NCBI GenBank assembly: GCA_014359355.1
Contig: JACIZP010000177.1
Location: forward strand, 662-64,661
Length of the DNA stretch: 64,000 nt
Direction of reading: 5' to 3'
Source of the DNA: Calditrichota bacterium
GTDB taxonomy: Bacteria; Zhuqueibacterota; Zhuqueibacteria; JANLFK01; Oleimicrobiaceae
The notes below the pieces were generated by a model. That model saw nothing but the letters and a program-made list of their open reading frames with translations, did not search any database and had not been told where the DNA came from. Of the stretch, positions 15,271 through 63,995 are shown one piece after another. The stretch's first letter is position 1, and every line of letters begins with the position of its first letter. The position numbers and the translations under genes were made by a program.

Positions 15271-15300
15271 TCCCCATCTGCTGCGTCTTAAAGGTGTGCC

Positions 15301-15358: not shown

Positions 15359-15443
15359 CCTGGCTTCTGGCACAACGGGCTATTGGCATGGGTCTGGCAG
15401 CTCCTGCTAATAGCCTTTTCTTTTCTGGGGGTTTCTATGCCGT

Positions 15444-21072: not shown

Positions 21073-21102
21073 TTGCCACTTCTCCAGCTGTGTCACCTTC
21101 AA

Positions 21103-21564
21103 CTATGGGGAAAGGAGCGTGAACACCTGACTGCGCATGAATTGTCCGTCCAGATAGACCTCCACCCACCAATCACCTGCCGGTGCAGAGGCCGCCGTAT
21201 CCAAGTAGAACCAGGTGACCGCATGCCCGCTGTCGGAGGTCAACTCCACCTCGCGATGGCCCTGGAGCTGCCCCTCGGGGTCGAACCATTTGGCCCCCAC
21301 TGTGTGCGTCTTGTACCAGTTGCCCCACCTGATCCAGAGGTAGACGACGTCATCCACCCGAAACGTGGCAGTCACCAGGACCGGATGCGACTCTTCGTCC
21401 ACCGCGACGCAGGTGAAGCACTCGATGATGTACGGCTCATCCTTGGTGGGCGCCACTACGCCGCCCCCTTCGCCCTCTATTTTCTCGCAACCGGGCAGCC
21501 CGGCCAGCCCTAAGAGGCAAGCAAGGAGGCCAACAATCGAGCCGCGTGCCATTGGCAACACCAT
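21103..21564 (-). CDS. Small lipoprotein, hypothetical (between TolC and adaptor genes)
   Basis: 153 aa; signal peptide ending LAGLPGC (probable lipobox Cys); no recognisable domain. Confidence 0.45.
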   Translation of the reverse strand: MVLPMARGSIVGLLACLLGLAGLPGCEKIEGEGGGVVAPTKDEPYIIECFTCVAVDEESHPVLVTATFRVDDVVYLWIRWGNWYKTHTVGAKWFDPEGQLQGHREVELTSDSGHAVTWFYLDTAASAPAGDWWVEVYLDGQFMRSQVFTLLSP

Positions 21565-22991: not shown

Positions 22992-23702
22992 CTAAGTGAG
23001 CGCCGCGGTGATCGCCGCCGCAGCCAGCGCGTAGACGATGTAGAGCGCCACCACGCCGGTGGCTGCCTTCTTCACGGTGAAGCGGTAAATGACCGCCATG
23101 CCAATGCACACCAGCACCAGCTCCCACAGCGAGAAGACATCGGTGCGCGCCAGGAGCTGGTAAAGAAAGGTGCCCTTCTGCTCGGGGTCAAGGAACGCGG
23201 CCAGGCTGGTCTGCACGTTCACTGTGCCCCGGGAGAGCATGAGCGGCGTCTTGACAATGGTGGCCAGGACACCGATCAGCGAGGTCCAGGTGTACATGGC
23301 AAACACCTTCTTGAAGTTGCTCGCGCCACCCAGGACGATGTTTCCTAAGAAAAGGAGGGCCAATGTGACGACCACTATGACGACCACCGCACCCACTGGT
23401 GCCATCACCGGGCCGGTGATCCGGCCGATCTTGGCCCCCACTTCCAGAGCCCGGTCTGCTTCCTCTGGAGTCATGCCCCGCTGTTCGATCAGCTTGTCCC
23501 GCTGCTTGGCCATGCCCTCTTCCATGGCCATCGGCGTGATGAAGATGGCGGCAACCACGGTGGCAATGACCACCAGCACCAGCGGCAGAACCCACCGGGG
23601 CCGGCGGTCGATCGCCTCATAGGCCTCACGCGGACTGACGAAAATGTTGACCAACGTCCCCAACAGGGAATCCCCCTGCCCAGACACTTGTGGATTCTCC
23701 AT
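22992..23702 (-). CDS. Yip1-domain membrane protein
   Basis: 236 aa; 'LLGTLVNIFVSPREAYEAIDRRPRWVLPLVLV' plus five TM helices typical of the Yip1/DUF1282 family. Confidence 0.6.
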   Translation of the reverse strand: MENPQVSGQGDSLLGTLVNIFVSPREAYEAIDRRPRWVLPLVLVVIATVVAAIFITPMAMEEGMAKQRDKLIEQRGMTPEEADRALEVGAKIGRITGPVMAPVGAVVVIVVVTLALLFLGNIVLGGASNFKKVFAMYTWTSLIGVLATIVKTPLMLSRGTVNVQTSLAAFLDPEQKGTFLYQLLARTDVFSLWELVLVCIGMAVIYRFTVKKAATGVVALYIVYALAAAAITAALT

Positions 23703-27451: not shown

Positions 27452-27535
27452 TACACGCTGTGAAGCGGGTGGGATGAACGGTATCGGTCGTCACTCTCTG
27501 CTTCAGGGGCACAACCATAAGCAGTGGAGGCTGAG

Positions 27536-30500
27536 ATGGCAGCGAAACGGATACAGGCCAGCACGCTGATCGGAGTTGGTCTCCTCCTGTTCTATACGAC
27601 AGCGGCGGTTGCACAACAGGGCTCCATAGGTAACAGGGCTACCGCCGACCCCGCGTACACCGGGTATGCAGCTTGGATCAAGCTGACCGTGGCGGGGCCC
27701 GCAGGGAACAATTCTCTCAACGACAACTTTGCCGGTGCGAAGGTCGAGATTGACCTGAATATCGACGGCGACAACAATGAAGCCACCAACCCTGGCGACG
27801 TGTACGAAGCCAGTGGCGACGCCGGAGAAATGGTGACTGACCCGCTTGGCTCCGGCGGCGCCTTTGACCAGTACTTCTACGTGCGCATCAAATCCGGCGC
27901 GAACAACCCGTTCCCGGATGGAGTAGGTTACGACACCGACCTCCGTCCGCGCGTGAAATTTGCCGCCAGCGGGTTTCTGCGTGTGGGTGGGGTGCCGATA
28001 CAGACCGAGACCGGCTTTGTGAACGCCACCGACGACATCACCCCCAGGATGCGCAAAATCGAGCACTATGACGACGGTACAGGTCATATGCCCGGTTCTC
28101 CTGGCAATCAGGTGCAGTACGACGGCTACATTGACAAGATCATCATCGAGTGGAGCGAGCCCATGCGCACCAGCAATGTGGCCGCCAGCACAGCCATCTT
28201 CGGTGGCCTCGGCTCCTCGGTGAGCAGCATTGAAGCTACCGGTGCGTGGGCCGACAACAAGCATTTTGTCATGTGGCCCGTGTCCATTTCGCCGAACTCC
28301 GGCATCACCCCAACCCTGTCCTATTACCCCCCACCCAGCAACAGCGACAAATTTGCCAGCGCAACTTTGCAGTACGCCGAGACGCATGCCAAGGTGGTGA
28401 CCGACCGCTCCGGCCCGGCGATTGTCAGCGCGCAGACCAAGCGCGCCACCCGGCGCCAGGCCTTGGCTGCAGCGCTCGCGGCCAAGCGCATCCGCGTGGT
28501 CTTTAGCGAGCCGGTGGCCTTCAACTACATCCAGGGTACTGACTTTACCGTGACCATCAACGGCGTCAACAACCCGGTGGCCAGCATCGTCTCGCCCACC
28601 ACCGCAAACCCACCGACCAATACGTACGAATTCGCCCTGACCAACGACTTTGTCCACGAGGATGTGACCGGAAGCATCTCCTACACGGGGACGATGCTGG
28701 TGCGCGACGTCAGCCCCGACAGCAACTACAACGGCGTGGGGCCCACAAGGACAATCACCGACGGTATTCTCCCCAACATTGTCTCCGTGCGTACCGTTGA
28801 CGGTCTCTCGGCCACCAATGCTGGCGCCAATGGCTGGGGTTACTTGGACTGGGTGGAGGTCACCTTTGACCACACTTACAACGGCATGGACCAGGCCCGC
28901 CTCAGCACTTTGGGCTTCACCGTCACTGGCACCGGTATATTGACCATTGGCGCCACCGGCAGTTGGGCCAGCGCCACCACGTTCCGCATTCCTTTGGTGG
29001 CCACTTCCCCGAAGGTGCCTAATACTGACCTTGTGCCCACGGTGACCTATGTCAACCCGGGGTCGACTACCGGTTTGCGGAGCGCCGTCAACAACGGGTT
29101 GGCCGAGAACTTGCTGGCAACCGATGTGACACCATCCTCGGAAAATGCCTCGCCCGTGCAGATTATCGACGGTGCCGGCCCAGCCCTCATCGAAGCTTAC
29201 ACTGCTGGTGGCAACAGAATCAGGCTCACGTTCAGTGAGAAGGTCAACACGGCCGGTTGGCCCACCACCGAACCGGCCGCCCAGGTGCCTTCCCGCTTCA
29301 AGTGGTTCGTCGGCCTGCGGAACTTTAGTGCGGCCGGAACCAAGGTCTTTTTCACCGGGCTCTCTGGCACCAATCAGGACAATGTCATCTACCTGAACAG
29401 CACCGGGGCCACCTGGACAAAGACCGATAGCGGCTTCGTCAACTTTTATGGGACCAACGTCGTCTACGACGTCGCCACCCCTGCTAACGGGAACCTGCAG
29501 TGGGACGACGACGGCTCCATAGTCGGCTTCACCGGGACCACTTCCGACGTCAAAGTGAAACGTGACAACATCGCCCCTATCCTCCTTGGTTTGTACACGC
29601 AGGACTTTGACGCCGACGGGACGTTAGATCACTACCGCTTCGTGTTCGATCCTCTGTCTCCCATCTTCCCGAAGACGTCGTTCAAGGCGGCAAACTGGAC
29701 GATTGCAGGCTATGACGGACCGAAGTCGGGCATCAGCCTGAACATGAACGTCTACAATCCGGCACACGCGCAGTACAAACCCACGGCCATCAACACCTTT
29801 GGCGATACGGTGGAGGCATACATCTCGTTCAACGAGACTACGGCTGGTGGCCCACCTGCCACCCCGTATGGCGGTGACACAGGGGATGTGCCGGACGTAA
29901 TTGTAGAAGCTGGAAAGGGCTTCGCGGACTGGGCCGACAATGTGATGGCCGCCTTGGGCGAGGGCCTCTCCTTGGAGAGCGATAAGGCTGGCCCGGCCAT
30001 CATGAGCGCCAAGACCATCTCTACAACCACCGTGGAAATCCTCATGAGTGAAAAGGTCCAGGGACTGGACTTGGCCGACTTTGACCTCACCATGGGTTTT
30101 GTCCCGCCGCTGGCCTCGGTGACCCAACCCAGCGACGCTCGTGTGCTGCTGACCGTCGCCCCTTACGCCCAGTGGGCACCCACGCAGACGGGCACCGTTC
30201 GCCTGACCGGGGTCAACAAGATCTATGACGATATCGCCGGCACTAACAACGGCAACATGCAGACTGCCTCCATCGCCGTGATCGATGCCACGGCCAGTTA
30301 CTTCATAGTCAGCCAAGTCTACAAGGAGGGGTCGCAGTTCACCGGTGTGCCGTTTGACATCAAAGTTATCGCCAAGGATTCCCACGGTACCACTGACGTG
30401 AACTTTACGGTACCCATCCAGTTCGCTGCCAACAAGCAGCGGGTGACCCTCCCGACCGGCGTGCAACGCCTGACCAACGGCGAAGGGGTGTTCCAGATCG

Positions 30501-31981
30501 TCTGCTATGACACTACCTCGAACTTGGTGATTACGGTCTACAAGACCACCGATCCCGGGGTGAACGGCTCAACTGAGCCAATAGAGGTGGTGGAAGCGGT
30601 GATCGACGCACCCAACACGCTCACCGTGAAGGACTACAAGGGTGCCGACGGCGAGGGGGACCAGGGTGGTTATGTGACGCTGGTCTGGGACTTTTCGCAG
30701 AACCATCCTGGCATCGGTACGGTCAACATTATCGACTACTACCAGATCTACCGCGTGGTCGAGGGCAAGCTCTTCCATTGGGGCACCGTGCAAGCGACTG
30801 ACCCGCGAAAGAGCGAGGCGGACTCGGTGCGCGTGGTGGTGCCCACCTATGACAATGTGATCTCGGACTTTTACGTGCAGGCTGTCAAGAATCCTCCCCC
30901 GCTCACGGCTGCGGCCCCGCTCTTGCCTGATGAGGACGCCATCCCGCTGCCGGCGGGGTACGTGTTTGCCATGCCGCCGAAGGGCGACAATGGCGAGGTG
31001 ACTGTCGCTGCCGCCATGACTGCTGGGCAGTTGGTGTCGCCGCTCACCAAGGGCACGGGTGGCGCCACTGACGACATCCCGCCGGCAGCCATCACCGAGG
31101 CGGCTATTCGCAAGATTAGTGCGCAGGCGAAGCTGTTCTGGCCAAAGGTCACCAAGGGCATCGATGGCTCGCCGGAGCGTTCGCGGATTACCTATCGCGT
31201 GTATGCGCACCCCAGCAATGCCTTCTTTAACGTTGGAGACCCGGACGCGGTACTTCTGGGTAGCTGCGCAGATACCTTCTTGGTGGTGAACGTCGATGCC
31301 TTGCGGCGGTTCTACATGGTGGTGGCCATGGACGACAACAACATGTCCGGCCCCTCCAACCGCGTCGGCCATTACGGCTTTGCCTTGAACAAAGGCGAGA
31401 CGCGCAAATACACGCACATCTCGCTGCCGCTGATCGATCCGAACATCACCGACGCCAAGTCATTAGCCGCCAGCATCGGCGGTGTGGCTGCGGTGTACAA
31501 GTTGGACCCAGCGACCAACGCCTACACCACGTACTGGCTGCCAGATATGGGTTTGGGCACCAACTTCCCCATCACCCCTGGCATGGCCTGCTTGGTCAAC
31601 CTGAAGAGCGACGCACCCAGCACCTGGTTCATGGTGGGGTCGGTGCCGTACCCAGGCAGCGTTCGTTTCACGCTGGCCAAGACCAAGACGCGTACCTACA
31701 ATGAGATCAGCGTGCCGCTTGACCGTCTGACCCTGACCAACGCCGCACAGCTGGCCGCCAGCATTGGCGGCGTGGAGGCGCTCTACCGGATCGACCCGGC
31801 TACCAACGCCTTCACGCAGTATTGGCTCGTGGCTCAGGGCTTGGGCACGAATTTCCCCTTGAACCCAGGCGAACCGGTGCTCCTGTTGGTGAACCAGTCG
31901 GCTCCCAATCAGTGGCCGGCAGGCAGCATGACCGCTGCGCTCCCTGTGGGCGAACAGCCTGCGGGCGCAAAGGAAGAATGA
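27536..31981 (+). CDS. Giant secreted surface protein (1481 aa) with Ig-like/beta-rich repeats and C-terminal tandem ~90-aa repeat
   Basis: GGAGG RBS 6 nt before ATG 27536; signal peptide (LIGVGLLLFYTTAAVAQQ); Thr/Gly/Asn-rich beta-strand composition; last ~190 aa contain two copies of ISLPLxxxxLTxAxxLAASIGGVxAxYxxDPATNAxTxYWLxxxGLGTNFPxxPG; no T9SS CTD. Confidence 0.6.
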   Translation: MAAKRIQASTLIGVGLLLFYTTAAVAQQGSIGNRATADPAYTGYAAWIKLTVAGPAGNNSLNDNFAGAKVEIDLNIDGDNNEATNPGDVYEASGDAGEMVTDPLGSGGAFDQYFYVRIKSGANNPFPDGVGYDTDLRPRVKFAASGFLRVGGVPIQTETGFVNATDDITPRMRKIEHYDDGTGHMPGSPGNQVQYDGYIDKIIIEWSEPMRTSNVAASTAIFGGLGSSVSSIEATGAWADNKHFVMWPVSISPNSGITPTLSYYPPPSNSDKFASATLQYAETHAKVVTDRSGPAIVSAQTKRATRRQALAAALAAKRIRVVFSEPVAFNYIQGTDFTVTINGVNNPVASIVSPTTANPPTNTYEFALTNDFVHEDVTGSISYTGTMLVRDVSPDSNYNGVGPTRTITDGILPNIVSVRTVDGLSATNAGANGWGYLDWVEVTFDHTYNGMDQARLSTLGFTVTGTGILTIGATGSWASATTFRIPLVATSPKVPNTDLVPTVTYVNPGSTTGLRSAVNNGLAENLLATDVTPSSENASPVQIIDGAGPALIEAYTAGGNRIRLTFSEKVNTAGWPTTEPAAQVPSRFKWFVGLRNFSAAGTKVFFTGLSGTNQDNVIYLNSTGATWTKTDSGFVNFYGTNVVYDVATPANGNLQWDDDGSIVGFTGTTSDVKVKRDNIAPILLGLYTQDFDADGTLDHYRFVFDPLSPIFPKTSFKAANWTIAGYDGPKSGISLNMNVYNPAHAQYKPTAINTFGDTVEAYISFNETTAGGPPATPYGGDTGDVPDVIVEAGKGFADWADNVMAALGEGLSLESDKAGPAIMSAKTISTTTVEILMSEKVQGLDLADFDLTMGFVPPLASVTQPSDARVLLTVAPYAQWAPTQTGTVRLTGVNKIYDDIAGTNNGNMQTASIAVIDATASYFIVSQVYKEGSQFTGVPFDIKVIAKDSHGTTDVNFTVPIQFAANKQRVTLPTGVQRLTNGEGVFQIVCYDTTSNLVITVYKTTDPGVNGSTEPIEVVEAVIDAPNTLTVKDYKGADGEGDQGGYVTLVWDFSQNHPGIGTVNIIDYYQIYRVVEGKLFHWGTVQATDPRKSEADSVRVVVPTYDNVISDFYVQAVKNPPPLTAAAPLLPDEDAIPLPAGYVFAMPPKGDNGEVTVAAAMTAGQLVSPLTKGTGGATDDIPPAAITEAAIRKISAQAKLFWPKVTKGIDGSPERSRITYRVYAHPSNAFFNVGDPDAVLLGSCADTFLVVNVDALRRFYMVVAMDDNNMSGPSNRVGHYGFALNKGETRKYTHISLPLIDPNITDAKSLAASIGGVAAVYKLDPATNAYTTYWLPDMGLGTNFPITPGMACLVNLKSDAPSTWFMVGSVPYPGSVRFTLAKTKTRTYNEISVPLDRLTLTNAAQLAASIGGVEALYRIDPATNAFTQYWLVAQGLGTNFPLNPGEPVLLLVNQSAPNQWPAGSMTAALPVGEQPAGAKEE

Positions 31982-50070: not shown

Positions 50071-53000
50071 CTACAGTCGGCCAGCCAGAACCACCGTGGC
50101 TCTGGCGGTTTCCACGGTACCGGCTGCGGCGTTGAGCGCTTCCAGGTAGACGATGTACACCCCGATACGTGCCTGCTGGCCATGATCGTCCCTGCCGTCC
50201 CACACCACCGCATTGGAGGCGGCCACCGGCTGGTTGCTCGCTAAGAAGCGAATGAGGCGGCCGGTGACATCGTAGATCTTGACGTTCACGGCAGCCGTGG
50301 TCATCGGCAAGGCGAACGAGATGACGGCAAAGTCGTCGCGCCCGTCGCCATCTGGCGAAAAGGGCGAGGGCGAGACGCTGAGCGTGGTGCGCGGCGGTAC
50401 CACCATGGTGAGGACGCTGTTGGCACGGCCTGGCGTCCCCCCGGTCTTGTCCACGCACGAGCTCCAATTGGACTTCAGCTGCGAAGGCAGGCTTGGGTTG
50501 ATTCTTTCGAGCGAGACGCCCGTATCTCCGCCCCAGCTCTGGTCGTAGGCCACACTGTCGATGACCGTGCCCTGGGGGTCGTAAACGACCACGGCGTCGC
50601 CAGTCGCGGAGAGCGCAGGCCATGAGGGTACTACCAGCAGCAGACTTTCGCCGAGCTCGCCCGCCTTTGCTAAGGAAGAGTCTTCGGCAAGCAGCACAAA
50701 GCCGCCGGGCGGCACGAGCAAGAGATTGCTGCTCACCACCCGGCGCTTGGCCAGGTCCGCATCGGAGAAGAGCCACTTCTCCAAGTTTACTGCCGCCTCG
50801 CTGCGATTGTACAGCTCCACCCACTCGCCCATGCCGCTGAGCGGCGCGTACATGATCTCGTTGACCACCAGCGTCCCCCTGGCAAAGCCCACCATCAGTT
50901 CAGCCACGGCGATGTTGTTGGCCGGCCTCATGTCGCCTGCACAGGTCACCAGCACGCCGATCCACATGACGCCAGCCGGGGCTTCGCGCCATTCCACCTC
51001 CACCGACCGGCACTCATCAGGGGCCAGTTGTGCTATGTCGACCGGTTCCCCCAGTCGCTCGCCCGGCGCAAATACCGTATCCCGGTTGGCGTCCCAGAAG
51101 AACTCCACCCGCACGTGCTCGGCGGGCGCCCGACCTTCGTTGCACACCTGGGCCTGAAGCCGCACGCTTTCGCCAACACGAGGTTGCTCGGGGAGGAAGG
51201 AAAGCCCGGCACCAGCCACACCAACGTCCACCGTCAAGGGGCTCACGCTGTTTTCTGTCCCAGGGGTGGCTCCTTCGGGGGCAGTGCTCAGCCGCCAGTT
51301 GGCGCTGTCCTGCGAGCCCCACTCGTAGCGCACCCGCTCCAGGGAAACGCCAGTGCGCATCCCCCAGCGAGAAAAGTAGTGCACGCTGTCCACCACCACG
51401 CCCGCGGGGTCGTACACCCGCACCTCATCCTGGTCATTGTTGAGCGCGGCCCACCCCTGCTTCACTGTCAGCAGGGGCGCAGGAAGCTGGCCGTACTGGA
51501 AGCGCACTACAGAATCGGCGGCGACCACCGCAAAACCACCCACTGGCACGCGCACGTGGGTGGTGCCGAAAAGCCGCGGACCGGAAGTGGCATCGCCCAG
51601 TCCCCAGCCGTAAAGGTCCACCTCGCTAGGTCCGGCATTGTAGAGCTCAACCCACTCACTCTGCCCGGAGAAGGGTGCGTACATAATCTCATTGACCAGC
51701 ACCTGCCCCACGGGAAAGGCCACCACCAATTCCGCGAAACGGCGGTCATTGTCCGGCCGCTGGTCATTTGGGCAGCTCGCCGCCACTGCGATGCTGTGCA
51801 CTCCTGGCGGCACTCCTTCCCAGCGGAAGAGCAAGGTCTGCTTCGCGCCACTGGCCAACTCGCCCACCACCTGTGGCGCATCCAGCCGTTCCGCAGCCGT
51901 CAGCACGGAGTCGCCGTCTGCGTCCCAGTAGCAGCTCACCTCCACGCCGGCCACCGCCTGGCGGCCTACATTGCGCACTGCCGCAGCGATCGTCACCGAT
52001 CCCTGCGCACGAGGCACAAACGGCGCCCACTGAATCGACCCCGCCACCACCTCGACGTCCACCGCCAGGGGACTCACGCTGTTCTCCAGGCCTGGCGTTC
52101 CGCCGCGTGCGTTCACCGCAGCACGCCAATTGCTGGGCAGGTTGGACGGCTCTTCCGCGCGCACCCGTTCCAGGGACACGCCTGTTCGCACCGGCCCCCA
52201 AGAAGCAGCATAAGCCACGCTGTCGATGGTTGCCCCTGTCAGATCGCGAACAACCACCAGGTCGGCGTCGTTGTTGAGGGTCGGCCATTTGCTGCCGATC
52301 GTCAGCAACAGGCCGCCAAATTCCGGAAAGTCCCTCTTCATCGTCGTGTCTTTGGCCACGACCAGGTACCCGCCTGGCGGTACCACGATGTGGCGGTCGG
52401 TGAGGCGCACCAGTGTTCCGACGTTCTCGTCGCTCACCGTCCAGTCATAGACGTCCACACCGCTGTCACGAGGGTTGAATAGTTCTATCCACTCGCACGC
52501 GCCGGACTGGGGTTGGAACATGATCTCATTGATGATGAGGTCTCCGCTCTGGAAAGGCACGCGATACTCCCCGTACGCCATGTCGTCGGAGGTGTCAGGA
52601 TCCGCCACCTCAACCAGTCGAGCAATGATGCGGCTGAGCCCAGGGGCAGCGGCTCCCAGCTCGACGCTGCACAGCAAAGAGTCGCCGCCTGCCAGGCCCG
52701 CCAAGGGACAGGAGAGGCCCACCAGCTCCTGCGCGCCGGGCTTGAGGTCATAGTCCGCGTCGCGATAGAAGGCGACCATGCCGCTCTCCGCCGTATCCAT
52801 GCCGTGATTGTAGACCCACACCGAGGCGCGGACCGTTTGCCCATAGCGAGGCTGTGGCGGCTCAAACTGCACCCCGGCAGAACCAAGTCCAACATGCTTG
52901 TCGCGCGGACGGATGCTATTCGGGGCATTGGGCGTACCGCCCAACGGCGCCCGGCAGGGACCCCAGTTCTTGCGACTGTTGGTTGGCCAGTCTGGCCTCA

Positions 53001-54312
53001 CCCGCTCTATGGACACGCCCGTCTCGCCACCCCAAGAGGCGAAGTAGTACAGGCTGTCCACCGAAAAGCCTGCGGCATCCCAAATCACCACTGCATCGCT
53101 GGTGTTGTTAAGAGCAGGCCAGCCCCGTCCCGGCACAAACACCGGGCCGGACAAAGTGGGAAAGAGCGCCCGAACCAGGGTGTCCTCTGCGAGCAGGGCG
53201 AAGCCGCCAGGAGGGAGGAGCGCCTTTGTGCTGGTGACCGTAACTCGTGTAGCAGTGCGGGAATCGCTTAGCGACCACAGCCGCAGGTCGATCACCTCCG
53301 GGCTGCGGTTTAGGATCTCCACCCACTCGGGCTCCCCTGCACTTGGCCGGTACATGACTTCGTTGACCACCACCTCGCCGGGCCACACGCCGACGCCAAG
53401 GGTCACCCTCTGCTGGTCGTTCTCCGCGGAGCTGTCGCCTTCGCCCACCACCCGCGCAAGTAGCTGGTGCACTCCAGCCGGCACCTCATGCCAGGTGAAC
53501 CGTGCCACCGCACTGTCGCCTGGCTGCAGAGAGGGGCTGACAAACGGCGCTTCCAGGAGTTCCTCTTCCCTGCCGAAACCGTCCTCGTCGCGATCCAAGT
53601 ACAGGGCAATCTGGCAGCTGGCGATTTCCTTGCGGCCGGCGTTCAGCGCGACCACCGTAAGCTGAACGCTCTGGCCGCGTCGGACACGAGACGGCGACCA
53701 GACCACGCTCTTGAGCGCCAGGTCTATGGCTCCCGCGCTCACGCTGTTGGGCGCGCCAGGCGTACCCCCGAGCACCCGGCTGTTCGCCCAGTTGGCAGGT
53801 GCGTCGCCGGCTTCGAGATCGATCTTCTCGTCAGAGTACCCCTGAGGGTTGTCCAGGGTGTAGCGATAGCGGCTCACCGTGTCGCCCCTGGCGTTGGTGA
53901 GAATCACCGGTTCGGGAATGGTGTTTGACCACCCGCCGCTGCCAAAGGCGCCGTCGTCAATTTTCACAATCAATGCTTCGGCAGGGATGACGCCGTCGTA
54001 GGTGGTGGAGTTGCCGAAGTAGCTGCCGTCGAGGATGACGGCGAACTGCCGCGGCCGGAGGATGAGCCCCCACCCTGCGTCGATAATCTTGTCCAACTCG
54101 ATGCTGTCGCCAACGGCCCAACCGGCGAGGTTCACAGAATCCGTCGCACTGAGGTTGAATATTTCCACGTACTCGTCGTGGGCCTCGTTGGTGGCGGGAT
54201 CGAACATGACCTCTGACACGGTCACCTGCCCCAGGCTGCGACCTGGGCTTGCGGCCAAGATAAGGAAGGCTCCAATAACGAAGAAGCGGCGATAAAACTT
54301 TGACTCAGCCAC
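50071..54312 (-). CDS. Giant secreted protein with five lamin-tail domains (LTD) alternating with CARDB/Ig-like domains and C-terminal FlgD-Ig-like domain
   Basis: GTG start 54312 with purine-rich RBS (ORF track extends upstream into purA region); signal peptide; five repeats of NE(I/V)M(F/Y)xPxxGxxEW(I/V)ELxN...D(L/V)xxWxLxD...PPGG(F/Y)xV...ALNNxxDxVxxxDxxGxxxDSVxY...WG...GVSLERV; C-terminal 'PFSPDGDGRDD...VKIYDVTGRLIR' FlgD-Ig-like. Confidence 0.7.
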   Translation of the reverse strand: MAESKFYRRFFVIGAFLILAASPGRSLGQVTVSEVMFDPATNEAHDEYVEIFNLSATDSVNLAGWAVGDSIELDKIIDAGWGLILRPRQFAVILDGSYFGNSTTYDGVIPAEALIVKIDDGAFGSGGWSNTIPEPVILTNARGDTVSRYRYTLDNPQGYSDEKIDLEAGDAPANWANSRVLGGTPGAPNSVSAGAIDLALKSVVWSPSRVRRGQSVQLTVVALNAGRKEIASCQIALYLDRDEDGFGREEELLEAPFVSPSLQPGDSAVARFTWHEVPAGVHQLLARVVGEGDSSAENDQQRVTLGVGVWPGEVVVNEVMYRPSAGEPEWVEILNRSPEVIDLRLWSLSDSRTATRVTVTSTKALLPPGGFALLAEDTLVRALFPTLSGPVFVPGRGWPALNNTSDAVVIWDAAGFSVDSLYYFASWGGETGVSIERVRPDWPTNSRKNWGPCRAPLGGTPNAPNSIRPRDKHVGLGSAGVQFEPPQPRYGQTVRASVWVYNHGMDTAESGMVAFYRDADYDLKPGAQELVGLSCPLAGLAGGDSLLCSVELGAAAPGLSRIIARLVEVADPDTSDDMAYGEYRVPFQSGDLIINEIMFQPQSGACEWIELFNPRDSGVDVYDWTVSDENVGTLVRLTDRHIVVPPGGYLVVAKDTTMKRDFPEFGGLLLTIGSKWPTLNNDADLVVVRDLTGATIDSVAYAASWGPVRTGVSLERVRAEEPSNLPSNWRAAVNARGGTPGLENSVSPLAVDVEVVAGSIQWAPFVPRAQGSVTIAAAVRNVGRQAVAGVEVSCYWDADGDSVLTAAERLDAPQVVGELASGAKQTLLFRWEGVPPGVHSIAVAASCPNDQRPDNDRRFAELVVAFPVGQVLVNEIMYAPFSGQSEWVELYNAGPSEVDLYGWGLGDATSGPRLFGTTHVRVPVGGFAVVAADSVVRFQYGQLPAPLLTVKQGWAALNNDQDEVRVYDPAGVVVDSVHYFSRWGMRTGVSLERVRYEWGSQDSANWRLSTAPEGATPGTENSVSPLTVDVGVAGAGLSFLPEQPRVGESVRLQAQVCNEGRAPAEHVRVEFFWDANRDTVFAPGERLGEPVDIAQLAPDECRSVEVEWREAPAGVMWIGVLVTCAGDMRPANNIAVAELMVGFARGTLVVNEIMYAPLSGMGEWVELYNRSEAAVNLEKWLFSDADLAKRRVVSSNLLLVPPGGFVLLAEDSSLAKAGELGESLLLVVPSWPALSATGDAVVVYDPQGTVIDSVAYDQSWGGDTGVSLERINPSLPSQLKSNWSSCVDKTGGTPGRANSVLTMVVPPRTTLSVSPSPFSPDGDGRDDFAVISFALPMTTAAVNVKIYDVTGRLIRFLASNQPVAASNAVVWDGRDDHGQQARIGVYIVYLEALNAAAGTVETARATVVLAGRL

Positions 54313-54365
54313 TGCCCTTCTCCCCGCTCGTGCTGAACGGTAGCTGGTCTGTAGCGATGATGCGA

Positions 54366-55640
<1,275 letters not shown>

Positions 55641-55763
55641 CTATCCGACCGATTTGGGGACACGCCACCACGTGCCCATTGCGAAACAAAACTCCGAATC
55701 GGCCCCTTCCCGACCCGGAGTCCCAACCACACGCACACCTCACCGGGGCAAACCGCCTCCGGT

Positions 55764-56102
55764 CTAAGCGAAACTCTCTACTGCCTGTTCGACGCTATCG
55801 AACGTCTCAAAAACGTGGATCAGCTTGGTGATGGTCATCAGGCTGCGTATGCGCGGTGTGACGCACGCCAACTTCAGCTCGCCGCCGTTGTTACGCAGCG
55901 TACTCAGCGCGCTGATCAGCAGGCCCAATCCGGAGCTGTTCATCCACTGCACCTGGGCCAGGTCGGCGACTACCTTCCTGACGCCGGCGTCGATCAGCTC
56001 GTGGACCTTCTCGTTGAGGAGCCCTGCGTCCGGTCCTCCCATTATCTTGCCCGCCAAGGAGAGCACCGTCACTGGGCCAAACTGCCGTTCGGTGAGCGTC
56101 AT
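55764..56102 (-). CDS. STAS-domain anti-sigma-factor antagonist (paralog), downstream of secF
   Basis: 'VTVLSLAGKIMGGPDAGLLNEKVHELIDAGVRKVVADLAQVQWMNSSGLGLLISAL'; ~45% identical to 16178..16516 product. Confidence 0.75.
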   Translation of the reverse strand: MTLTERQFGPVTVLSLAGKIMGGPDAGLLNEKVHELIDAGVRKVVADLAQVQWMNSSGLGLLISALSTLRNNGGELKLACVTPRIRSLMTITKLIHVFETFDSVEQAVESFA

Positions 56103-56129
56103 CGCTCCCTCCTATTCCCCTGTGCCCAA

Positions 56130-57071
56130 TCAGGCTCGGGCCACTTCGCGGTGGAGCTTCCTGCGTTCGAGCCATCCCTGCCACGCCACGACAATAGGGC
56201 TGGCCACGAAAATGGACGAGTAGGTACCAATGGTGATTCCTATCAACAGGGCAAAGGCGAAGCCATGGATGACCCTACCCCCGATGAAAAAGAGCACGAC
56301 CAGCACCATGAGCGTCGTGAGGGCGGTGATCACCGTCCTACTCAGGGACTGGTTGATGCTGGTATTGACGATGGTGTAGATGTTCTCACGCCGCATGAGT
56401 TTGAGGTTTTCCCGTATCCGGTCAAAGACCACAATCGTGTCATTCAGGGAGTAACCAACCAGGGTCAAGAACGCCGCGACCACCACCAGCGAGATTTCCA
56501 TGTTCAGCAACGAGAAGATGCCCAGCGTGATGAGCACGTCGTGGAACAGCGCCACCACCGCACCCACGGCAAAACGGAACTCGAACCGCCAGCTGATGTA
56601 GATGAGAATGAGCAACAGCGAGATGAAAATGGCCAAGGTGGCTGCACGCCGCAACTCTGCCCCGATCTTCGGACCCACGGATTCGATGCTCAGTACCTCG
56701 TAGCTCTTGTCGGGCAGGTCCTTAGCCAGCTGCTCCTTGATTTTCTCGGCAACTTGTTCGCCGCTCAGCTCGCCCTGTTCAACGCGAATGAGGATATCGC
56801 TGCCAGCCCCGGCGCCCCGCAGTGAAGTGGAGGCCTTGATCTCTGCAGTGCCAAAACCGATCTTGGCCAACGAGGCTCGCACCTGGCCGACGCTCACCTG
56901 TTCCTTGAATTCCAGCACAATGGACGTGCCACCGCGAAAATCGATGCCGTAACGGGGTCCGCCGTGGGCGATCAGGGAAATGAGCCCCGCCAGGATGAGC
57001 ACGCCAGAAAAGGTGTAAGCTGCCTTGCGCATGCGCAGGAAGTCTATCGATGTCTGCTTAAAGAGTTGCAT
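56130..57071 (-). CDS. secF: Protein translocase subunit SecF
   Basis: 313 aa; 'IDFRGGTSIV' and six TM with 'LHDVLITLGIFSLL' SecF motifs. Confidence 0.85.
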   Translation of the reverse strand: MQLFKQTSIDFLRMRKAAYTFSGVLILAGLISLIAHGGPRYGIDFRGGTSIVLEFKEQVSVGQVRASLAKIGFGTAEIKASTSLRGAGAGSDILIRVEQGELSGEQVAEKIKEQLAKDLPDKSYEVLSIESVGPKIGAELRRAATLAIFISLLLILIYISWRFEFRFAVGAVVALFHDVLITLGIFSLLNMEISLVVVAAFLTLVGYSLNDTIVVFDRIRENLKLMRRENIYTIVNTSINQSLSRTVITALTTLMVLVVLFFIGGRVIHGFAFALLIGITIGTYSSIFVASPIVVAWQGWLERRKLHREVARA

Positions 57072-57110
57072 CTGATCTGTCTCCTTGTGATGCCGTATCG
57101 CCGTGAACCA

Positions 57111-59186
<2,076 letters not shown>

Positions 59187-59275
59187 CGACAGACTACCTC
59201 CTGAGAGGAAATAGCTCAATTTCGCTGCTTGTCACGAAGGTCACGCCGCACCCGGCGGGTGCACCACGAACTGCA

Positions 59276-59304
59276 AATATAGACCATTCCCACCTAAAAG
59301 TCAA
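59276..59304 (-). promoter_or_regulatory. Sigma70 promoter TTGACT-17-TATATT for secD-secF-STAS operon
   Basis: Minus-strand -35 at 59304..59299, 17-nt spacer, -10 at 59281..59276, ~80 nt upstream of secD ATG, between citF stop and secD. Confidence 0.55.
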
Positions 59305-59325
59305 ACGGAAAAAGGCGAGGCCGGC

Positions 59326-60876
59326 TCACGTCTTCGGCACCAGCTGGCGCACTGCGTCGATGATTGTACCATCCCGAAACTCGATGAGCGCCACGATGCG
59401 CTCGGTGAACGTGGGCTTTTCCGGCTGCCCTGTCATGTCGATCGCCATGCGGTAGAGCTTGTCGATGGGCACGATGGGCAGACTGCTCCGCTTCAAGCGC
59501 TGCAGCAGGTCTTTCCGCCGTGGGTTGATGGCAATGCCGCGCTCGGTGACCACCACGTCGATCATCTCGCCTGGCGCAGTAACGGTCACCACCTTGTCCA
59601 CGATGATCGGCACCCGCCCACGCACCAGCGGCGCGGTGATGATGGTGACCTCTGCGTCGGCGGCGTCTGTGAACCCGCCGATGCCGTGCAGCAACCACCC
59701 GTCGGAGTGGGTGTTCACGTTGACGTTGAAATCAAGGTCGATTTCCGTGGCACCCAGCACCGAAACCTTGACCATCTGGGCAAAACAACCCTTGGTGTGG
59801 TAGTTGTAGGAGACGAAAGGATTGGTCTCGATGTGCCGCGGGTTGTCGCGCAGGGACTGCACTCCAGCCAAGTCAAAGCTCTGGCCGTCGAGAATGTAGC
59901 GGGTGAGGCCCTGGTTGAGCAGGTCCACCATGTACTGCGTCGATCCGCCTCGCACAAAATCGGCGACGACGCCGGCGCGGGCCATGTGCTCGGCCATGAA
60001 CTGCACGAACGCAAGGGAGACACCTCCGGCCCCAGCCTGAAAAGAGAAGTGCGGCTCGTGCATGATGCCGCTATCCACCACCAGCTGCGCGGCGTACTTG
60101 GCGATGAGCAGCCGCGTGGGGCTGCGCGTGATGACCGTGGTGCCGGAAACGATGCGCGCAGGGTCGCCGATGGCATCCACCTGGACGACATAGTCGACGT
60201 TGCCGCCCTGGATGCTCCATGGGTAACAGGGGAAGGGCACAAGGTTATCGGTGACCACCACCACCTTGTCGGCATAAAGGGAATCGGCCAAGGCAAAGCC
60301 GAGCGGGCCGCAGGCCGATTTGCCATAGACGCCGTTGGCGTTGCCGTGGGCATCGGCAGCCGGTGCGGCAATGAAGGCAACATCGATGTGCAGGTCGCCA
60401 TCCTGGATGGCGCGATAGCGGCCGCCGTGGGAGCGGAGCACGCACACGCTCTTCATCTTCCCCAACGAGCACGCCCTGCCCACCGGCCCGTTCATTGAGC
60501 CCTCCACGCGGCGCACCACGCCCTTTTCGATGTGGCGCACCAACGGCTCGTGGCAGGGGAAGAGCGCAGACGGGGCGACCACCAGGTCTTTGAGGCCTCT
60601 GCGCGCCAGCTTGTCCATGACCATGTTCACCACATAGTCGCCATCCCGCAAGTGGTGATGGAAGGAGACCGTCATGCCGTCCTTGATGCCGCAGGCATCG
60701 ATGGCGTCGTCCAGCGACTTGAGCAGTTTGTTGCGGTAGTCGCTGGCTGCACGAATCAGCGCGCCAGCAGTGCGTCCCCCACCTTTGTCGGCATGAGCCC
60801 CTTGGAATGGTCTAAGCTTTCTCCCTTCAATCTCTGTGGGCACTAACCGCCCAACGGCGTTCTCTACCAGGTCCAT
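59326..60876 (-). CDS. citF: Citrate lyase alpha subunit (citrate CoA-transferase)
   Basis: Start at MDLVENAVGRLVPTEIEGRKL; 'LDDAIDACGIKDGMTVSFHHHLRDGD' and overall ~516 aa match CitF family. Confidence 0.75.
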   Translation of the reverse strand: MDLVENAVGRLVPTEIEGRKLRPFQGAHADKGGGRTAGALIRAASDYRNKLLKSLDDAIDACGIKDGMTVSFHHHLRDGDYVVNMVMDKLARRGLKDLVVAPSALFPCHEPLVRHIEKGVVRRVEGSMNGPVGRACSLGKMKSVCVLRSHGGRYRAIQDGDLHIDVAFIAAPAADAHGNANGVYGKSACGPLGFALADSLYADKVVVVTDNLVPFPCYPWSIQGGNVDYVVQVDAIGDPARIVSGTTVITRSPTRLLIAKYAAQLVVDSGIMHEPHFSFQAGAGGVSLAFVQFMAEHMARAGVVADFVRGGSTQYMVDLLNQGLTRYILDGQSFDLAGVQSLRDNPRHIETNPFVSYNYHTKGCFAQMVKVSVLGATEIDLDFNVNVNTHSDGWLLHGIGGFTDAADAEVTIITAPLVRGRVPIIVDKVVTVTAPGEMIDVVVTERGIAINPRRKDLLQRLKRSSLPIVPIDKLYRMAIDMTGQPEKPTFTERIVALIEFRDGTIIDAVRQLVPKT

Positions 60877-60895
60877 TGCCAAACCTCGTGGTTCC

Positions 60896-62083
60896 TCAGT
60901 CGATAAGGCCAAGGGCCTTGGCCAATTGCAGCGTACGCTTTGCCCGTGCCACCACGGGCGCATCGATCATCTTTGTGCCGAGACTGGCGACACCCGCACC
61001 GCGGCGCTCTGCCTCCTCCAACGCAGCAATCACTTGCTGCGCATGCGCAATCCGCTCCGGAGTCGGCGCAAAGGCGCGATGGATGGGCTCAATCTGCGCT
61101 GGGTGGATGACCCCTTTACCTTCAAAGCCCAAGGCGATGGCCTCTTCTGTGCTCTTGACCAAACCGTCGACGTCGGCAACATCGGAGAACACGGTGTCGA
61201 TGGCCTGCACCCGTGCGGCCTTTGCCGCCAGCACCAGCAGGCTGCGCGCCACAAAGCTCTCCTTGCCCTCAACGGTGCGCTCTGCGCCGATGTCTGCGGT
61301 AAAATCCTCCGCTCCGAAGCAAAGGGCGACCACCCGCTGACTGGCAGAGGCGATCTGGTATGCGTTGAGCACGCCTTTGGCGCTTTCGATGAGCGGCATG
61401 AGCCAAATCTGATAGCGAAGGCGATGCTCTCTTTCGAGGGCAGCGACTCTCTCCTCGACCTCCAGCACGCTTTCCGCTGCCTCGCACTTGGGGATGAGGA
61501 TGGTATCAGGTTGGGCCGGTACCACCATCTCTAAGTCGGCTGCGCCAAATTCTGTGGCCAAGGGGTTGATGCGCACGATGCGCTCGGCAGCACCAAAGTC
61601 CACCGCCAGCAGGCTGTTGCGCACCAACACGCGGGCGGCCGCCTTGTCTGCGGGCGCTACCGAGTCCTCAAGGTCCAGAATGACGCTGTCCGCCCCAAAG
61701 AGTCCTGCGTTGAGCATCAGGTCTGGATTGTTGCCGGGCAGATAGAGGCGCGTGCGCCGTAGGCGATCTTTGGGTACCTGTCTCCGCTTGATCCGCCGCT
61801 CCGGCCAGACGCCCAGCCCTTCGACAGGCCAAAGGGCGCGCACCCCCGCCTCCACGCGAGCCTGAATGACGTGGTCTAAGGCGCCCCTGTCGTCTACCGT
61901 CAGGGAGGCATGACGCACGCCCAAAGCCTCGAGGGTAGAGAGAATGGTGGCACGGATTTGTTGGCCAAAGGTGCCCGCCACCGAGCTGACCAGGTCGAGC
62001 CGGATGCCACCGCGTGTCCGTCGCTCGATGGTCAGCAGCAGGTCGCTCTTGTCACTCCTTCCGACTTGGATCTTCTCTGCCAT
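60896..62083 (-). CDS. Fused citrate lyase acyl-carrier (CitD, gamma) + citrate lyase beta/citryl-CoA lyase (CitE) protein
   Basis: Residues ~10-85 'SDKSDLLLTIERRTRGGIRLDL...IRATILSTLEALGVRHASLTVDDRGALDHVIQARVEAGV' align with CitD incl. VDDKGALD block; residues ~110-395 'RRTRLYLPGNNPDLMLNAGLFGADSVILDLEDSVAPADKAAAR...' HpcH/HpaI-CitE fold; single continuous frame. Confidence 0.65.
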   Translation of the reverse strand: MAEKIQVGRSDKSDLLLTIERRTRGGIRLDLVSSVAGTFGQQIRATILSTLEALGVRHASLTVDDRGALDHVIQARVEAGVRALWPVEGLGVWPERRIKRRQVPKDRLRRTRLYLPGNNPDLMLNAGLFGADSVILDLEDSVAPADKAAARVLVRNSLLAVDFGAAERIVRINPLATEFGAADLEMVVPAQPDTILIPKCEAAESVLEVEERVAALEREHRLRYQIWLMPLIESAKGVLNAYQIASASQRVVALCFGAEDFTADIGAERTVEGKESFVARSLLVLAAKAARVQAIDTVFSDVADVDGLVKSTEEAIALGFEGKGVIHPAQIEPIHRAFAPTPERIAHAQQVIAALEEAERRGAGVASLGTKMIDAPVVARAKRTLQLAKALGLID

Positions 62084-62121
62084 ATGTTGTCCTCAACACC
62101 ACAGAGCCTCAACGATTCCGT

Positions 62122-62706
62122 TCACAACAAGCTGGTGACCAACTCCGCCTTGGGGGCTGGAATCACCACCTTGCGCATGAGCAAGCCCTTGCGCTGTACC
62201 ACTGCCGCGCCTGCCTCCACTGCCGCCCTGGCTGCCGCCACCTCTCCCGTGAGGGTCACGAACGACTTGCCGCCAAGTCCCACGGCCAGACGCACCTCGA
62301 TGAGGGTCACCTTGGCTGCCTTGGCCGCGGCATCGGCCGCTTGAATGCTGGAAGCAACCGAAAAGGTCTCGATGATACCCAGCGCCTCGACTTGTTCAAC
62401 TGCGGAGGTCGCGTTGATTGCCGGGAATACGCTCTGGTGGACGCGCGGCAGGACCATTTCGTCGACGACCGTTTCGCCACCTCTGGTCACGCCGGCGTTC
62501 ACGCTGCTCTGCACGGCGGCGACATCGCCACGCACCAGGCAGATATACTTGCCAGGGCAGACCGTCTTGGCCACCACCAGCTCCACCTCGCTCACCTTGA
62601 GCATGGCGTCGGCTGCCTCGATGCCCACGGCGATGCTGTTGAACTCCACCAGACCTATGCAGTCACGCGCCGCTTGCGTCATCATCCCTCTGCCACTTCG
62701 GTTCAC
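62122..62706 (-). CDS. Bacterial microcompartment shell protein, tandem BMC-domain (PduT-like BMC-T)
   Basis: Two BMC domains: 'IGLVEFNSIAVGIEAADAMLKVSEVELVVAKTVCPGKYICLVRGDVAAVQSSVNAG' and 'LGIIETFSVASSIQAADAAAKAAKVTLIEVRLAVGLGGKSFVTLTGEVAAARAAVEAGA'; conserved Cys in KTVCPGKY as in PduT (4Fe-4S site); start may be internal ATG 62682; GTGA overlap with upstream gene. Confidence 0.8.
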   Translation of the reverse strand: MNRSGRGMMTQAARDCIGLVEFNSIAVGIEAADAMLKVSEVELVVAKTVCPGKYICLVRGDVAAVQSSVNAGVTRGGETVVDEMVLPRVHQSVFPAINATSAVEQVEALGIIETFSVASSIQAADAAAKAAKVTLIEVRLAVGLGGKSFVTLTGEVAAARAAVEAGAAVVQRKGLLMRKVVIPAPKAELVTSLL

Positions 62707-63995
62707 GATGCTTCGATGCAGACCATTTCCTCATCCACTTCTGCCACACGGCCAGAGATGGAGGCGTGCACCCGGGCGCTCACCTCGTCTGGGTGGCAAT
62801 CGCCGATGAGTTGCCCAACAACTACCTGCTGGCCGCGCGTTACCACCGGTCGTGCTGGGGCCCCTGCGTGTTGCTTGAGGCGGATGCGCACCCGTTGCGG
62901 GGCCACGGCATCTTCCCAGTAGCGCGCCGGACGGGCATAGGGCGTGAGCTGGAACCGCCCCATCAAACGCGAGGTGGGAATGCGTCGACTGCCCAGGGGC
63001 ACGCGCGCCTTGGTCTCGCGTGGCGCGGGCGCCTGCACCCCTCCACTGCGCAGAGCACGCTTCAACTCCCTGTTCACCAGGCGCGGCGACAACCCCATGG
63101 GACAGGCGTATTCGCAGGCCCCGCACTCTGAGCAGAGCAGGGCCATGCGCGCCACCTCGCTTTTGGCATCCAGGCCCAAGGCCATAGTCCGCATCACTCG
63201 ATGCGGCTCCAAGTGGTGCCCCAGCAGGTAGCGATTGCACGTCTCCGTGCACAATACACACTGCGTGCAAGCAGACCTCGCGTTGCGCAACTGGTGGGCA
63301 ACGCTCTGCGTGCGCGCCTGGACGCAGGGGTGCGCCAAGGGGAGCATAATTACCGCCGCGGTGGTCTTGTCAATGGGGGCCTCGGGATCCGTGGTTAGCG
63401 TCCCCATCATGACCCCGCCCATGAAAAACGCGGGGGCTTCGCACTGCGTGCCGCCGCAGAGCGACAAGAGCTCCCGTACCGTGGTGCCCACAGGCGCACG
63501 CACCACCTTCGGCTGCTGCACACAGCCGCCCACCGTCAGGGTACGGTGCGTGACTGGCTCCCCTTGCCACGCAGCAGCCACATTCCGGAGCGTCTCCACG
63601 TTTTGCACCAGCACACCCACGTGGACCGGCAGCCCCCCTTCGGGCACTAGCCTCCCGGTGGCAAGGGCCACCACCTCATGCTCGTCACCCGCCGGGTAGG
63701 CGTCAGGAAGCTCGACTACCTCCACGCCCTCGCGCCACGCAGCAATCAAGTGCCGGTTCTTTTTCTTGAGAGCGATGGCGAGCCTCTGCGCACCTGTTGC
63801 CTGGGCGATGAGCCGCAGCCCCCTGAGCACTTGCTGCCCCTCGACCCGCAAGACCTCCTGGTCGTTGCACAGAAGAGGCTCACATTCCGCAGCGTTGGCA
63901 ATCACCCACTCCACCCGGTGGGCGAACTTGTGGTGCGTAGGAAATCCTCCGCCTCCACCGCCAACCACACCTGCAGCAAAGACCTTTTGCGCCAA
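62703..63995 (-). CDS. PduS-like RnfC-family flavoprotein with two 4Fe-4S ferredoxin motifs (5' end probably outside window)
   Basis: 'AAGVVGGGGGGFPTHHKF...VIANAAECEPLLCNDQ' (RnfC/PduS NADH-binding + SLBB), 'CTQCVLCTETC' and 'CSECGACEYACP' ferredoxin motifs; ORF reaches window edge. Confidence 0.7.
   Translation of the reverse strand: MAQKVFAAGVVGGGGGGFPTHHKFAHRVEWVIANAAECEPLLCNDQEVLRVEGQQVLRGLRLIAQATGAQRLAIALKKKNRHLIAAWREGVEVVELPDAYPAGDEHEVVALATGRLVPEGGLPVHVGVLVQNVETLRNVAAAWQGEPVTHRTLTVGGCVQQPKVVRAPVGTTVRELLSLCGGTQCEAPAFFMGGVMMGTLTTDPEAPIDKTTAAVIMLPLAHPCVQARTQSVAHQLRNARSACTQCVLCTETCNRYLLGHHLEPHRVMRTMALGLDAKSEVARMALLCSECGACEYACPMGLSPRLVNRELKRALRSGGVQAPAPRETKARVPLGSRRIPTSRLMGRFQLTPYARPARYWEDAVAPQRVRIRLKQHAGAPARPVVTRGQQVVVGQLIGDCHPDEVSARVHASISGRVAEVDEEMVCIEAS

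Follow-up and report, generated by a model that had tools for sequence, protein, structure and literature searches.

The known proteins closest to the one considered here are SpoIIAA and RsbV, anti-sigma factor antagonists that work by partner switching. In the structure of RsbV with RsbW, contacts are made by the RsbV l2 loop, the l4 loop (Tyr53 and Ser56) and the alpha-3 helix (Arg84, Arg87 and Ile91) (PMC7340262). Partner switches without a sigma-factor output have also been described, among them BtrUWV, which acts on the type III secretion system of Bordetella, SypE/SypA, which acts on biofilm formation in Vibrio fischeri, and RbaV (PMC8256260). For HenR/All4160 of Anabaena the output is an envelope polysaccharide, and the kinase genes lie apart from the STAS gene (bioRxiv 10.64898/2026.04.08.717354). 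MlaB, a STAS protein of the MlaFEDB system, binds to the ABC ATPase MlaF, which it stabilises; the residue at its phospho-site position, Thr52, lies in the interface, and MlaB is without the C-terminal strand and helix (PMC7367683). Here we compare these systems with STAS2, a 112-amino-acid single-domain STAS protein of the SpoIIAA/RsbV type whose gene lies behind secD and secF at 55764..56102 on the minus strand of a Calditrichota bacterium contig (GenBank assembly GCA_014359355.1, contig JACIZP010000177.1, positions 662 to 64,661). The whole 64,000-nucleotide (nt) stretch is referred to below as the window.

STAS2 resembles the SpoIIAA/RsbV proteins (TIGR00377, “SDoPs”) in size, in fold (TM-score 0.85-0.88 to SpoIIAA and TM1442) and in the serine of its xSSGLG loop. 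It differs from them in that Asn55 replaces the aspartate before the phospho-serine, and in an invariant GKIMGGPDA loop that is peculiar to its FCB-group family. The genomic setting differs as well, since the STAS2 gene is not beside a kinase, phosphatase or sigma factor gene and is instead the probable last cistron of secDF. What is new about STAS2 is its conserved genomic setting; as a protein it is a regulator of a known type. The reading that we favour, and consider reasonably probable, is that STAS2 takes part in partner switching in trans and is coupled to secDF at the level of the operon.

Evidence on the family of STAS2 came from profile matches and from structure prediction. STAS2 scores 60.9 bits with PF01740 (1.1e-16; cut-off 22.6) and 67.2 bits with the “anti-sigma factor antagonist” model TIGR00377 (cut-off 53.45); a paralog elsewhere in the window, STAS1, scores 61.7 and 66.4 bits, respectively. 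The only sequence matches of STAS2 in the PDB are SpoIIAA, TM1442 and RsbV, and its identity to solved relatives is 22-27%. An AlphaFold2 (AF2) model (pLDDT 93.8, pTM 0.86) has helices at residues 24-38, 56-71, 83-91 and 104-109 and forms a complete four-helix, five-strand STAS fold in which the C-terminal strand and helix are present. In Foldseek searches the best matches of this model were SpoIIAA chains 1THN_B and 1TH8_B (TM-score 0.88 and 0.87, root-mean-square deviation 1.8), the SpoIIAA of the top match being bound to SpoIIAB, and further matches were TM1442 and RsbV from the RsbW complex (6M36). An MlaB identity was rejected: the MlaB model NF033618 gives 24 bits for STAS2, against a cut-off of 90, and no match for STAS1. 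The MlaB fold was rejected as well, with 7CGE_C at rank 46 and a TM-score of 0.55, and with the C-terminal helix (104-109) kept in the STAS2 model. Sequence and predicted fold both assign STAS2 to the SpoIIAA/RsbV family, not to MlaB. Ser56, within the motif WMNSSGLG, aligns with a SpoIIAA position that is Ser in 1TH8_B and Ala in 1TID_B, and which we take to be the phospho-acceptor Ser58, the counterpart of RsbV Ser56 at the N-terminus of helix alpha-2.

The unit to which STAS2 belongs is encoded on the minus strand of the window. Its first gene, secD (57111..59219), matches Pfam SecD_1st, SecDF_P1_head and SecD_SecF_C, and TIGR01129 at 451.6 bits (cut-off 244.4). After 39 nt it is followed by secF (56130..57071), which matches Pfam SecD_SecF_C (4.7e-68) and Sec_GG, and TIGR00966 at 328.7 bits (cut-off 160); both genes exceed the NCBIfam equivalog-domain cut-offs, and as genuine neighbours on one strand they fit an accessory operon of the yajC-secD-secF type. 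A scan for promoter consensus sequences placed a sigma-70-like match, TTGACT-17-TATATT, upstream of secD (59276..59304, minus strand); it agrees at 10 of 12 positions and is a consensus match only, as promoters of the FCB group may differ. A preliminary description of this DNA had placed a 112-amino-acid STAS gene 28 nt behind secF on the same strand. The gene is borne out by its open reading frame, its Pfam match and TIGR00377, and the spacer measures 27 nt (56103..56129). This spacer contains the Shine-Dalgarno sequence AGGAGGGAG (56105..56113), which, as read from the sequence, ends two bases 5' of the STAS2 ATG, and a scan of the window detected no terminator-like site in it. On the other side of STAS2, at a distance of 126 nt and on the same strand, is the adenylosuccinate synthetase gene purA (54366..55637; Pfam Adenylsucc_synt, 3.8e-178). 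The G+C content of the window is 62%, and that of STAS2 at third codon positions (GC3) is 0.81, matching the neighbouring genes. Long open reading frames antisense to purA, STAS2 and secF (for example, one of 841 codons at 54300..56825, plus strand) are artefacts of the 62% G+C and do not show the GC3 bias of real genes.

The nearest relatives of the STAS2 protein are encoded in metagenome-assembled genomes (MAGs) labelled KSB1, “Ca. Oleimicrobiaceae” or Calditrichaeota; Ca. Oleimicrobiaceae is part of Ca. Zhuqueibacterota in the FCB group. To describe the gene order more widely, loci were tabulated by tblastn with the window proteins for the best 80 of 329 relatives, with one genome per species and all from different assemblies. 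The order secD-secF-STAS on one strand was found in 36 of the 80 species-level genomes, and the remaining 44 are Zixibacteria and Ignavibacteria. The 36 secF-linked loci carry the labels KSB1, Zhuqueibacter, Caldithrix and Calditrichaceae, with some mislabelled “Cytophagia”. In P0001 (95% identical) and P0030 (65% identical) the block is kept and the genes outside it differ; the block is also present in P0200. When the window is compared with the remoter secF-linked genomes, identity falls to about 50-53% for SecD and PurA, so that the order secD-secF-STAS survives roughly 50% amino-acid divergence of these proteins.

Additional evidence on the transcription unit came from the gaps between these genes, measured with gene coordinates taken from alignments in the related loci. 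The gap from the secF stop codon to the STAS ATG has a median of 45 nt and a range of 14-171 nt, is at most 60 nt in 26 of 42 loci, and reaches about 330 nt in one further locus (L093). purA follows STAS in 34 of the 38 secF-linked loci, with a median STAS-purA gap of 110 nt. A scan for hairpins followed by a U-tract identified one in only 1 of 38 secF-STAS gaps, as against 28 of 34 STAS-purA gaps. Since the gaps are short and terminator-like hairpins come after STAS and not before it, the secDF transcript very probably has STAS2 as its last cistron across the secF-linked lineage. A terminator between secF and the STAS gene, which would have spoken against the preliminary description, is absent from the window and from nearly all related loci.

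The hairpin of the STAS2-purA gap has features of its own. Folding of the intergenic RNA predicts the stem ACUCCG-(19 nt)-CGGAGU followed by UUUGUUU at 55684..55724 (minus strand), a candidate terminator or attenuator. In the secF-linked loci (L001 and those among L007-L085), a conserved outer stem, (A)ACUCCG...CGGAGU-UUUUU, surrounds a variable inner helix of 8-45 nt. Among the secF-linked loci (about 0.6 Mb), the exact stem has 43 strand matches, 41 of them within 400 nt 3' of STAS; in 0.67 Mb of Zixibacteria and Ignavibacteria loci it has none. A generic genome terminator motif was rejected as an explanation, as a looser version of the stem is no commoner in the window than chance predicts and the exact stem is nearly exclusive to this locus. 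An Rfam scan of 54300..59400 found no relevant family, its sole match being a sub-threshold SAM_alpha inside secD. The end of the hairpin is frequently just 20-30 nt 5' of the purA ATG, too close for a promoter to fit between them, and an attenuator role is possible. Judging from this position, the hairpin may serve as an attenuator or leader for purA besides terminating secDF-STAS, in which case the unit may be secD-secF-STAS-(attenuator)-purA.

The 44 loci without secF place the STAS gene in a different context. In these loci, STAS is accompanied by a HATPase_c_2 gene (8e-25), a SpoIIE gene (2.6e-51) or both, each of the two being found in 39 loci. The order in the cassette is STAS, then a GHKL-type serine kinase resembling RsbW/SpoIIAB (HATPase_c_2, about 145 amino acids), then a multi-pass membrane GAF-SpoIIE (PP2C) phosphatase of about 750 amino acids. 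Often a Rex-like gene and a gene for a small secreted protein lie 5' of the cassette STAS, and a NUDIX gene lies 3' of the phosphatase. No sigma factor gene or transporter gene was noted among these conserved neighbours, for which no dedicated sigma-factor search was made. From its gene content, the cassette appears to be an uncharacterised partner-switching module. The small secreted protein, of about 146 amino acids, is without a Pfam match, and the NUDIX gene is sometimes replaced by genes for a small protein and a TPR protein. The cassettes are those of the 44 loci among L014-L086 (for example, L034 3193..5442 and L030 6153..6593), and another is at 4581..7690 of L097.

The cassette STAS proteins are 59-68% identical to STAS2, compared with the 50-53% or so of SecD and PurA among secF-linked genomes given above. 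Because each assembly gives one locus among the best 80, the secF-linked and kinase-linked settings are, on these comparisons, alternative homes of one ortholog. The cassette STAS also shares the conservation profile of STAS2. Ser56 is invariant in 102 of 102 aligned proteins (39 secF-linked, 44 kinase-linked and 19 of the STAS1 type), and likewise in a second alignment (A2). The segment G18-A26 (GKIMGGPDA) is 100% conserved in both the secF-linked and the kinase-linked group, W53-I63 is essentially invariant in both, and residues 84-94 are conserved at about 90% or more at most positions. By position in the model, the contact elements of RsbV map to STAS2 residues 18-26, 53-63 and 84-94, the most conserved segments in both groups. 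Proteins of the secF-linked group share a mean identity of 0.70 and those of the kinase-linked group one of 0.80, compared with 0.63 across the two groups. An extra conserved surface was sought in the secF-linked group and none was found, that group being, if anything, less conserved than the kinase-linked one; the comparison therefore gives no pointer to an additional partner.

The two groups are separated by residues 16, 17, 30, 57 and 84, which read L-[S/A]-N-S-R in secF-linked proteins and P-K-H-T-K in kinase-linked ones, a split that is near exceptionless across 120 database proteins and 83 proteins derived from the loci. These five diagnostic residues and the lack of adjacent kinase and phosphatase genes are what distinguish the window lineage from the Zixibacteria/Ignavibacteria cassette. 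Position 57 adjoins the candidate phospho-serine, and position 84 matches an RsbW-contacting arginine of RsbV. In a neighbour-joining tree, STAS1 falls outside a clade that joins both groups, and the kinase-linked clade is nested within it; built from 112 residues with midpoint rooting, the tree is too weak to tell which setting is ancestral.

These data suggest the following mechanism. STAS2 is the ortholog of the first gene in the STAS-kinase-phosphatase cassette of Zixibacteria and Ignavibacteria. Its gene, in the lineage of KSB1 (Zhuqueibacterota)/Calditrichota type, stands apart from kinase and phosphatase genes and occupies the promoter-distal position of secD-secF. STAS2 would still act by phosphorylation-dependent partner switching, and the genes for its kinase and for a SpoIIE-type phosphatase would lie at other places in the genome. 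Without the phosphate, STAS2 would bind to the kinase or anti-factor and neutralise it; once phosphorylated, STAS2 would be let go. By sharing a transcript with secDF, STAS2 would have its dosage linked to expression of the export machinery, and the output of the switch could be a sigma factor or a non-transcriptional target.

Proteins that could serve as partners were sought in the window and in related loci. A Pfam scan of all but a few of the window genes, which included no dedicated sigma-factor search, gave no kinase, PP2C or sigma-factor match. The kinase (c2) and phosphatase (c3) of the Zixibacteria cassette, used as queries in tblastn and profile hidden Markov model searches, likewise had no match in the window. 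About 0.9 Mb of KSB1-type loci contain two SpoIIE proteins, a response-regulator-SpoIIE protein (L066) and a HAMP-GAF-SpoIIE protein (L068), which indicates that KSB1 genomes encode the class of phosphatase that acts on STAS proteins. Their genes are about 6-8 kb from STAS, and their frequency is compatible with chance proximity.

Several observations weigh against partner switching in trans. An RsbW-like kinase was not found in the same 0.9 Mb or so of KSB1-type loci, and when a database of 5.8 billion proteins was searched with the kinase profile, the top 120 matches listed were all of the Zixibacteria type, so the cognate kinase of secF-linked genomes is one that we infer. Diagnostic residues 57 and 84 lie at or beside the presumed kinase interface, and to judge from their positions they could reflect a changed partner. 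Moreover, retention of the gene order over such divergence exceeds what would be expected of an incidental neighbour, and leaves room for a direct tie to SecDF. A match of low identity from the kinase search, P0335, proved to be another classical cassette.

The preliminary description had proposed that the STAS proteins couple to membrane machineries rather than to sigma-factor partner switching. The first part of this proposal agrees with the recurrent placement of both paralogs in transport operons. The second part is not supported, given that the nearest relatives of STAS2 (59-68% identical) are in kinase/SpoIIE cassettes, that Ser56 and the RsbW-contact segments are equally conserved in both settings, and that sequence and fold are those of SpoIIAA/RsbV.

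The second paralog in the window, STAS1 (16178..16516, minus strand; Pfam STAS, 6.4e-17), is also a 112-amino-acid protein. STAS1 and STAS2 are identical at 56 of 112 positions, or 50% (BLASTP, E 4e-38), a value previously put at about 45%, and the NSSGLG phospho-serine motif reported for both is present in each as WMNSSGLG. Two genes for MacB-type permeases (16542..17789 and 17793..19028) precede STAS1 on its strand, each with Pfam MacB_PCD and FtsX matches. Pfam further identifies an ABC ATPase (19047..19727), an HlyD-type adaptor (19787..21172), an OEP/TolC-like gene (21576..22964) and a Yip1 gene (22992..23702), all on the minus strand and all part of the exporter unit. A pentapeptide-repeat gene (15605..16168, minus strand; Pfam Pentapeptide, 1.7e-55) lies 9 nt 3' of STAS1; the NCBIfam models closest to its product are HetL and Alr5209, both under cut-off. 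While STAS2 is last in its transport operon, as had been stated for both paralogs, STAS1 is not the terminal gene of its own, because the pentapeptide-repeat gene starts only 9 nt downstream on the same strand.

The STAS1 setting is likewise conserved. Orthologs at 83%, 68%, 57% and 52% identity all occur within the order OEP-adaptor-ABC-MacB-MacB-STAS, followed by a gene for about 190 amino acids. The MacB-MacB-STAS1 order is kept in all four other species examined (L087, L089, L091 and L095; five of five with the window). Yip1 lies upstream in the three STAS1-type loci that extend far enough, and the genes further downstream vary. The genes for about 190 amino acids start 9-15 nt 3' of STAS1 (L087 7349..7918, L089 7350..7919, L091 7351..7923 and L095 6351..6923). 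Their identity as pentapeptide-repeat genes is confirmed in the window and in L087, L089 and L091 (189-190 amino acids in these last three), and the 190-amino-acid gene of L095 is known by position alone. Together, STAS1 and the pentapeptide gene resemble a conserved appendage of two genes on the exporter. STAS1 is an older paralog; with the pentapeptide gene it closes a MacAB-TolC-like exporter operon on the 3' side, a position fixed in the same way as that of STAS2 behind secDF. The placement beside membrane-transport operons that the preliminary description had seen twice in the window therefore recurs in other genomes, as secD-secF-STAS in 36 of 80 and as MacB-MacB-STAS1 in four of four other species, three of them with a confirmed pentapeptide gene behind it. 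The neighbourhoods are not random, with both settings recurring across species, and both STAS placements are conserved features, far beyond chance.

The placement of two paralogs, each in a different deeply conserved transport operon, is what would be expected if STAS2 and STAS1 were cytoplasmic accessory or regulatory subunits that bind SecDF and the MacB-type exporter directly, as MlaB binds MlaF, with phosphorylation of Ser56 as a possible toggle; sigma-factor-style partner switching would then not be their function. This explanation, in essence that of the preliminary description, seems unlikely to us, although it has precedents in the MlaB-MlaF interface (PMC7367683) and in the STAS domains carried by SLC26/SulP transporters (PMC8256260), and is consistent with the lack of an adjacent kinase or phosphatase gene in the lineages concerned. 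The nearest relatives in sister phyla belong to kinase/phosphatase cassettes whose conserved neighbours, as far as noted, include no transporter gene, the MlaB profile and fold fit STAS2 poorly (24 bits against 90; rank 46, TM-score 0.55), the full SpoIIAA topology is unlike that of MlaB, and a partner specific to the secF-linked group might have left an extra conserved surface, where mean identity is instead 0.70 against 0.80. SecDF is driven by the proton-motive force, with very little cytoplasmic mass and no ATPase, and so offers little for a STAS protein to dock onto. A direct subunit is more plausible for STAS1, which is encoded beside an ABC ATPase, than for STAS2. For STAS1, MlaB may by analogy serve as a functional precedent, being a single-domain STAS protein in a transporter operon with Ser or Thr at the phospho-site position in the partner interface, but the exporter beside STAS1 is MacB-type (FtsX/MacB_PCD), not MlaE/MCE. 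A related proposal combines the two ideas: the phospho-serine partner-switching network of KSB1/Calditrichota would have been rewired, its STAS proteins becoming switchable cytoplasmic subunits of envelope machines, such that STAS2 gates or reports on SecDF, and STAS1 with the pentapeptide protein regulates the MacAB-TolC-like exporter, both under kinase control. We regard this proposal as quite improbable. If it were true, export and efflux would be regulated post-translationally by a kinase instead of through a sigma factor.

Explanations in which the linkage says little about export also have to be considered. The gene order might be inherited without functional meaning, with STAS2 acting in an unrelated pathway and hitch-hiking on a strong constitutive housekeeping operon. 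secDF and purA are indeed housekeeping genes, secD-secF-STAS-purA mixes unrelated functions, the secF-STAS gap is variable (14-171 nt, and about 330 nt in L093), and the orthologs in 44 other genomes manage without secDF linkage. Nonetheless, the order is kept in 36 species-level genomes though flanking genes are reshuffled, a second paralog is similarly fixed in another transport operon, and the position of the terminator favours real co-transcription. We consider hitch-hiking improbable. Nucleotide binding has been reported for some STAS proteins, and STAS2 might instead belong with purA and purine-nucleotide status, the conserved hairpin being a purA regulatory leader that involves STAS2. 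While purA follows STAS in 34 of 38 loci, with a hairpin often so close to its ATG (20-30 nt) that a separate promoter has no room, a U-tract hairpin separates the two genes in 28 of 34 loci, the kinase-linked orthologs are not adjacent to purA, and the sequence offers no evidence of nucleotide or RNA binding. We consider a role with purA very improbable indeed.

Partner switching in trans, coupled to secDF through the operon, would have parallels in the partner switches with non-sigma outputs, in which a phosphorylatable STAS protein governs an envelope or secretion process; none of those systems involves SecDF or a MacB-type pump. Full-text literature searches that combined STAS or anti-sigma antagonist with SecDF, secF or secD found nothing relevant, and both the secD-secF-STAS and the MacB-STAS-pentapeptide operons appear to be undescribed so far. 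We know of no regulator of SecDF. That the secDF operon has a phosphorylatable STAS protein as a fixed member over two candidate phyla leads to the hypothesis that partner switching in the FCB group feeds into, or is fed by, envelope export, and the paralog in the MacB operon strengthens this hypothesis. The contrast with Zixibacteria and Ignavibacteria, where the same protein is part of a classical cassette, provides a ready comparative system, and the cultured Caldithrix abyssi would be usable if it shares the operon seen here in two Caldithrix MAGs. If the linkage reflects co-expression only, these data would amount to a modest comparative-genomics note on an ordinary family of anti-sigma-antagonists.

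Other genes of the window were annotated in passing. Upstream of secD (59326..63995, minus strand; compare 108..4775 of L001) are a citrate-lyase alpha subunit gene (CitF), a fused ACP/HpcH-HpaI C-C-lyase-type gene, a gene for a BMC-domain (microcompartment shell) protein of 186-194 amino acids, and an RnfC/Complex1_51K-type Fe-S protein gene; these names are Pfam assignments made on L001, a near-identical relative, and CitF alone was confirmed on the window sequence. Taken at face value, the labels could describe a small microcompartment-associated cluster of the citrate/citramalate type. Large open reading frames of 1034-1485 codons and one of 348 codons have few or no Pfam matches (50071..54513, minus strand; 27524..31981, plus strand; 8947..12051 and 7837..8883, minus strand). 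Three of these four gave no Pfam match at 1e-5, and the 1480-codon frame was outside that scan. Two of the frames without a match adjoin a TonB-dependent receptor gene (12091..15375), and the ortholog of the 1480-codon frame in L001 has LTD (lamin-tail) domains in repeat and, at its C-terminus, a weak likeness to FlgD_ig.

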